Shown here: positions 1-475 of the stretch, piece after piece | Numbering within the stretch: the stretch's first letter is position 1 | Layout: the number at the start of each line of letters is the position of its first letter | Source of the DNA: Escherichia coli | GTDB taxonomy: Bacteria > Pseudomonadota > Gammaproteobacteria > Enterobacterales > Enterobacteriaceae | DNA length: 475 bases | Reading direction: 5' to 3' (one strand) | Assembly (NCBI RefSeq): GCF_003334385.1 | Contig: NZ_QOWN01000178.1 | Notes under the pieces: model-generated | The model's input: only the letters and a program-made list of their open reading frames with translations | Database searches by the model: none | Told to the model about the DNA's origin: nothing | Program-made: the position numbers and the translations under genes

Positions 1-403
1 ATTCAGACAGGATACCACGTGTCCCGCCCTACTCATCGAGCTCACAGCATGTGCATTTTTGTGTACGGGGCTGTCACCCTGTATCGCGCGCCTTTCCAGA
101 CGCTTCCACTAACACACACACTGATTCAGGCTCTGGGCTGCTCCCCGTTCGCTCGCCGCTACTGGGGGAATCTCGGTTGATTTCTTTTCCTCGGGGTACT
201 TAGATGTTTCAGTTCCCCCGGTTCGCCTCATTAACCTATGGATTCAGTTAATGATAGTGTGTCGAAACACACTGGGTTTCCCCATTCGGAAATCGCCGGT
301 TATAACGGTTCATATCACCTTACCGACGCTTATCGCAGATTAGCACGTCCTTCATCGCCTCTGACTGCCAGGGCATCCACCGTGTACGCTTAGTCGCTTA
401 ACC
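1..403 (-). rRNA. rrl: 23S ribosomal RNA, 5' portion (about nt 1-403 of the mature rRNA, domain I); the gene continues beyond the window start
   Basis: The reverse complement of 403..1 begins GGTTAAGCGACTAAGCGTACACGGTGGATGCCCTGGCAGTCAGAGGCGATGAAGGACGTGCTAATCTGCGATAAGCGTCGGTAAGGTGATATGAACCG..., the canonical 5' end of Enterobacteriaceae 23S rRNA, and continues through GGGGAAACCCAGTGTGTTTCGACACACTATCATTAACTGAATCCATAGGTTAATGAGGCGAACCGGGGGAACTGAAACATCTAAGTACCCCGAGGAAAAGAAATCAACCGAGATTCCCCCAGTAGCGGCGAGCGAACGGGGAGCAGCCC (conserved domain I helices). The mature 5' end maps to window position 403 on the minus strand. The window ends inside the gene, so the feature is partial. Match is from memory of the reference, not an alignment. 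Confidence 0.95.
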
Positions 404-475
404 TCACAACCCGAAGATGTTTCTTACGATTCATCATCGTGTTGCGAAAATTTGAGAGACTCACGAACAACTTTC
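404..475 (-). other. 16S-23S internal transcribed spacer, 3'-terminal part (pre-23S leader), containing the 5' strand of the 23S processing stem
   Basis: Directly upstream of the mature 23S 5' end in the transcript, the minus strand reads GAAAGTTGTTCGTGAGTCTCTCAAATTTTCGCAACACGATGATGAATCGTAAGAAACATCTTCGGGTTGTGA, then GGTTAAGCG. This matches the spacer that precedes 23S in E. coli-type rrn operons. By established knowledge, the bases just upstream of mature 23S pair with sequence downstream of its 3' end to form the RNase III-cleaved processing stem. The exact cleavage site cannot be fixed from this window alone. Confidence 0.8.

Follow-up and report, generated by a model that had tools for sequence, protein, structure and literature searches.

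The 475 nucleotides analysed here, referred to as the window, almost certainly come from an ordinary rrn operon of Escherichia coli (or Shigella), seen on the antisense strand, and comprise nucleotides 1-403 of the 23S rRNA and 72 nucleotides of the adjoining spacer. Using cmscan against Rfam, we recovered positions 1-443 of the bacterial large-subunit rRNA model (RF02541, LSU_rRNA_bacteria) on window positions 403 to 1 of the minus strand. The match scored 322.8 bits with an E-value of 1.9e-104, the gathering score of the model being 50, and is far beyond chance. It is cut at its 3′ end where the window stops, at 23S nucleotide 403 on the left-hand edge. The 5′ end of the 23S rRNA gene (domain I) occupies window positions 1-403 on the minus strand, both by this model and by annotation. 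In the identical locus of E. coli K-12, window position 403 is 23S nucleotide 1 and the annotated mature 5′ end (locus position 8403). The first-pass annotation had taken positions 1-403 for a 23S segment, and its coordinates turned out to be exact. In every E. coli genome listed, a '23S ribosomal RNA' annotation lies beneath the window match, and the gene is 2,904 nt long in the loci identical to the window, where about 2.9 kb is the size of a full-length bacterial large-subunit rRNA. The 5′ end of 23S with its leader is an already known feature and holds no new biology.

The last 72 bases of the window (404-475), which the first-pass annotation had omitted, are spacer and not 23S. They are the end of the 16S-23S internal transcribed spacer (its final 72 nt), i.e. 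the 23S leader, on the minus strand; in the identical rrnE locus of K-12, positions 404-475 fall within the interval bounded by tRNA-Glu and 23S. The native spacer follows directly after 23S nucleotide 1 within the window itself, and the operon context 16S - spacer tRNA - 23S - 5S is present in the identical K-12 locus.

Multiple near-identical copies of the 23S segment, seven in E. coli, had also been expected in the first-pass annotation, and the genome counts and the seven copies of strain MG1655 agree with this. Each of the 5,426 complete E. coli genomes searched contained the segment. It occurred at 37,999 places altogether, between 1 and 19 in a single genome, the median being 7. The genomes with 1 and 19 copies, at the extremes of this range, may reflect engineered rrn deletions, amplifications or errors of assembly. 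Of these places in RefSeq E. coli assemblies, 37,989 (99.97 %) are chromosomal and 10 are on plasmids. The exact 475-mer (100 % identity) was found at about 9 of 60 evenly spaced ranks of the E. coli collection (~15 %), so that it is not peculiar to K-12 but widespread in the species. Copies from Salmonella are about 97 % identical, those from Klebsiella and Enterobacter about 91 %.

We aligned the window with all seven rrn operons of K-12 MG1655 (NC_000913.3). Over the 475 bases, the identity was 100 % for rrnE, 99.6 % for rrnB and rrnA, 99.4 % for rrnH, 99.2 % for rrnC and 97.9 % for rrnD and rrnG. Four of the copies (rrnE, B, D and G) are identical across positions 1-403 and are not distinguishable there. 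The only variable sites in the 23S part are five, namely 47, 48 and 119 (rrnC), 88 (rrnA) and 140 (rrnH), and the window has the majority state, which is also that of rrnE, at each of them. In the spacer, an operon-variable patch was located at 424-440, in the loop region of a small leader hairpin. Here rrnD and rrnG share a 9-nt deletion (430-438) and also differ at 424-428 and 440, and rrnH differs at 431; outside the patch, rrnB differs at position 473. The adenine at position 426 is found in rrnE only (1 of 7 K-12 copies), the other six being different, with T in the majority. At each of the 21 variable columns of the alignment the window agrees with rrnE, and its positions 1-423 are exactly common to three further K-12 copies.

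Naming the operon of origin from the window was considered and rejected. It works in K-12, where A426 marks rrnE, and fails across strains, as seen from the hybrid Ile/Ala-type operon of strain F524, whose 475 bases are the same. The rrnE assignment is valid only for a K-12-like source.

The repeat surrounding the window is about 5.2 kb long (positions 438-5667 of the rrnE locus, with the window at 2472-2946), and across this length rrnE is 98.1-99.7 % identical to the other six copies. Towards the 16S gene, unique sequence is first reached 2,034 nt from the window, and towards the 5S gene 2,721 nt from it. Because the window is embedded in a near-identical repeat of ~5.2 kb, short reads are unable to place it, and since the repeat occurs seven times in a typical E. 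coli genome at 98-100 % identity, the 23S part of a 475-base piece does not reveal where on the chromosome it belongs. To enter unique sequence, a read must extend past the window by more than ~2.0 kb towards 16S or 2.7 kb towards 5S, and a length of about 5.3 kb is needed to span the repeat. Contig ends in or near the window may be repeat boundaries. The relevance of these results is housekeeping only: the window is not placeable by its 23S part, and ORFs called on it are spurious.

The first-pass annotation had warned that the placement and the flanks of the segment may be collapsed or chimeric. As a general point this stands, given the 5.2-kb repeat and the database cases described below, and it is a correct and routine assembly caveat, not a biological feature. 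Nothing within the present window suggests that it applies here; the window carries one natural haplotype, that of K-12 rrnE, with A426 and the native junction. Nor does the window hold any accessory content to which the caution could refer. A collapsed or chimeric short-read contig, meaning one consensus for several rrn copies or a sequence with misjoined flanks, is in our view an unlikely origin of the window. How short-read assemblers deal with such repeats is established knowledge, such artefacts do occur in public records, and within the ~5.2 kb of repeat (98-99.7 % identity) the window has no unique sequence closer than 2.0 kb. Moreover, positions 1-423 exactly match three other K-12 copies, and a misjoin beyond the 475 bases would be invisible. 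However, the window is identical over its full length to a genuine copy of a closed reference genome, and it also equals copies in roughly 15 % of the sampled complete E. coli genomes. It has the minority A426 (1/7), whereas a majority-rule collapse of the K-12 copies would give T, an argument which is limited to a K-12-like source. Assuming such a source, neither a majority consensus nor a mosaic of copy-specific variants was found at the 21 variable columns. No abrupt junction to unrelated sequence was found within the 475 bases, where the 23S runs into its native spacer, and this junction looks functional, being complementary to the 23S trailer, in contrast to the broken junction in NZ_CP129240.1.

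The latter record, the 'complete genome' of E. coli 1344_LBHALD, has 11 places rather than 7. At positions 1-9472 of the retrieved locus, we observed a bare 23S gene (4499-7403) without spacer, 16S or 5S, which abuts base to base fragments of RHS, ISAs1, PLP decarboxylase, GTPase and TnpB genes and a lone tRNA-Glu. The fragments are all flagged as partial, without N- and C-terminus, and the window match ends at the 23S boundary. This patchwork looks like repeat contigs concatenated into a chromosome.

It is very improbable that the window derives from a non-canonical rrn copy, whether plasmid-borne, on an excised circle, or host rRNA filed in a phage or plasmid record. In support of such an origin, plasmids account for 10 of the 37,999 places found across the RefSeq assemblies of E. 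coli, the segment is found in 72 PLSDB records and 16 'phage' records, and the circular record pF524-3 has a 100 % identical copy. However, 99.97 % of the places are chromosomal, and most of the 'plasmid' matches are either megabase-sized records, evidently chromosomes, or non-mobilizable fragments of the size of an rrn operon. The 'phage' matches are unverified short contigs without annotation. None of the plasmid and phage matches that we inspected shows a genuine mobile rRNA element, and a mobile or accessory origin of the segment was rejected.

Among the phage records, OR844775.1 is filed as 'Escherichia phage' (UNVERIFIED_ORG) and is a SPAdes node whose length, 5,386 bp, matches that of the repeat. 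It contains rrn operon sequence only: 16S, tRNA-Glu and a 23S that is truncated by the end of the record. Other short unannotated 'phage' records with host rRNA (1.6-7.3 kb) include OR850364.1, OR845267.1, OR850889.1, PQ800148.1 and PV358070.1. One record of 1,627 bp, labelled 'Staphylococcus phage', shares 97.3 % identity with the window, i.e. with enterobacterial 23S and spacer, a similarity which suggests contamination and mislabelling.

Several 'plasmids' of 6.5-22 kb from human blood isolates of E. coli carry the segment (CP088634.1, CP088748.1, CP088871.1, CP088631.1, CP088766.1 and CP088358.1). The first of these, CP088634.1, is a 'circular plasmid' of 6,560 bp, typed as non-mobilizable and with one hypothetical CDS. 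Apart from a complete 16S-Ile-Ala-23S-5S operon it contains hardly anything, and it probably represents a repeat contig that was wrongly circularised.

The record pF524-3 (NZ_OY843411.1), a circular 'plasmid' of 93,760 bp from a hen isolate of E. coli, consists of chromosomal genes, and in the retrieved locus positions 5075-10391 hold hemG-16S-tRNA-Ile-tRNA-Ala-23S-5S-tRNA-Asp-tRNA-Trp-hdfR, with the window match at 8001-8475. The circle closes through a hybrid rrn operon, which is rrnA-like in its proximal and rrnC-like in its distal part, and its length is close to the distance from rrsC to rrsA in K-12 (93,723 bp). The record is either the product of rrn-rrn recombination (an excised circle or a tandem duplication) or an artefact of circularisation by the assembler. 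A second record, NZ_OY757140.1, has the same length and a 100 % match to the window. In the pF524-3 locus we also identified Rev39_5p_UTR (RF02744, 157.1 bits) at 1567-1856, in the ilvL/ilvX leader region upstream of ilvG.

The chance that the plus strand encodes a product of its own, either a protein from an ORF of 50-53 aa or an antisense RNA, is close to nil: the three ORFs of this length (19-180, 51-203 and 238-393) are of a size expected by chance in 475 bases, the one terminator-like hairpin (161-177) agrees with the number expected from shuffling (0.3 ± 0.6), no promoter-like site was detected (0.4 expected), and the rRNA on the minus strand accounts for all sequence conservation. ORFs called inside rRNA genes are a familiar class of false gene predictions. 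The repeat scan found no internal repeats in the window. With the ORF list and the promoter, terminator and repeat scans all at chance level, hidden plus-strand content was rejected.

It is well established that RNase III cleaves the 23S processing stem and thereby releases pre-23S. To test the role of the spacer part, we cofolded two RNAs, one consisting of window positions 404-475 extended by the first 17 nt of 23S, the other, from rrnE, of the final 18 nt of 23S and the 23S-5S spacer. The predicted duplex has 48 intermolecular base pairs between the leader and the 3′ flank of rrnE 23S, and the stem is nearly continuous from 23S helix 1 out to positions -68/+44. The cofold energy was -77.6 kcal/mol, compared with -52.7 ± 3.2 kcal/mol for shuffled partners (n=200; z = -7.8), and none of the 200 shuffled partners reached an energy as low. 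The 5′ strand of helix 1 (23S nt 1-8, window positions 396-403, minus strand) appears both in the cofold and in the structure line of RF02541. In the cofold, the partners of these nucleotides are positions -2 to -9, numbered from the 23S 3′ end, and the helix is continuous with the processing stem. The leader at 404-475 supplies the 5′ side of this stem by pairing with the 23S 3′ trailer, and the structure is the classical 23S processing stem.

The differences in the spacer among the seven K-12 operons fall almost all within one hairpin loop (424-440), and the adjacent bases, which are paired with the 23S trailer, do not vary between the K-12 copies. Judging from the alignment, the clustering of variation in the loop fits a constraint acting on the processing stem only.

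Next to the 23S gene, the window contains the 3′ two-thirds of StyR-44 (RF01830) at 411-475 on the minus strand, a match located 8 nt upstream of 23S nucleotide 1. It is truncated at the 5′ end, as model positions 1-44 fall beyond the right edge of the window, and its score stays under the gathering threshold because the window cuts the 107-position model off at position 45. Complete copies of StyR-44 score 122.9-124.9 bits and are located directly upstream of 23S (OR844775.1, CP088634.1 and NZ_OY843411.1), an arrangement that PMC2943607 also describes.

StyR-44 has been described as an RNA which is present seven times, belongs to the ribosomal operon and is processed from longer precursors (PMC2943607). 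It is growth-regulated and was found in E. coli too; the leader fragment is visible on Northern blots, with growth-phase regulation in both Salmonella and E. coli (PMC2943607). The same authors were unable to exclude that it is a mere metastable intermediate of rRNA maturation (PMC2943607). Our cofold is consistent with StyR-44 as such a processing intermediate. Transcription of the operon gives a single 16S-tRNA-23S-5S precursor, in which the spacer part of the window pairs with the trailer beyond 23S into a long stem joined to helix 1. Going by established knowledge, cleavage of this stem by RNase III frees the pre-23S, and the leader fragment freed with it is the RNA cloned as 'StyR-44'. 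That the leader (404-475) might act as a small RNA itself, beyond being an RNase III by-product, seems to us quite improbable. If it did, the loop differences at 424-440 would result in slightly different versions across the seven operons.

Of the known systems, StyR-44, the RNA cloned from the rrn spacers of Salmonella Typhi, resembles the spacer part of the window in its position immediately upstream of 23S and in its hairpin, and differs in that the window covers only model positions 45-107, with 50.7 bits against a gathering score of 54. The six K-12 operons rrnA, B, C, D, G and H are 97.9-99.6 % identical to the window, and all six differ from it at spacer position 426. The closest counterpart is rrlE, the 23S gene of K-12 rrnE (NC_000913.3, 4210043-4212946), which lies in an operon of 16S, tRNA-Glu, 23S and 5S between purH and yjaA. 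The same 475-mer is found in many non-K-12 strains and in the Ile/Ala-type operon of strain F524. With no difference in sequence, rrlE and its upstream spacer are identical to the window at 475 of 475 bases.
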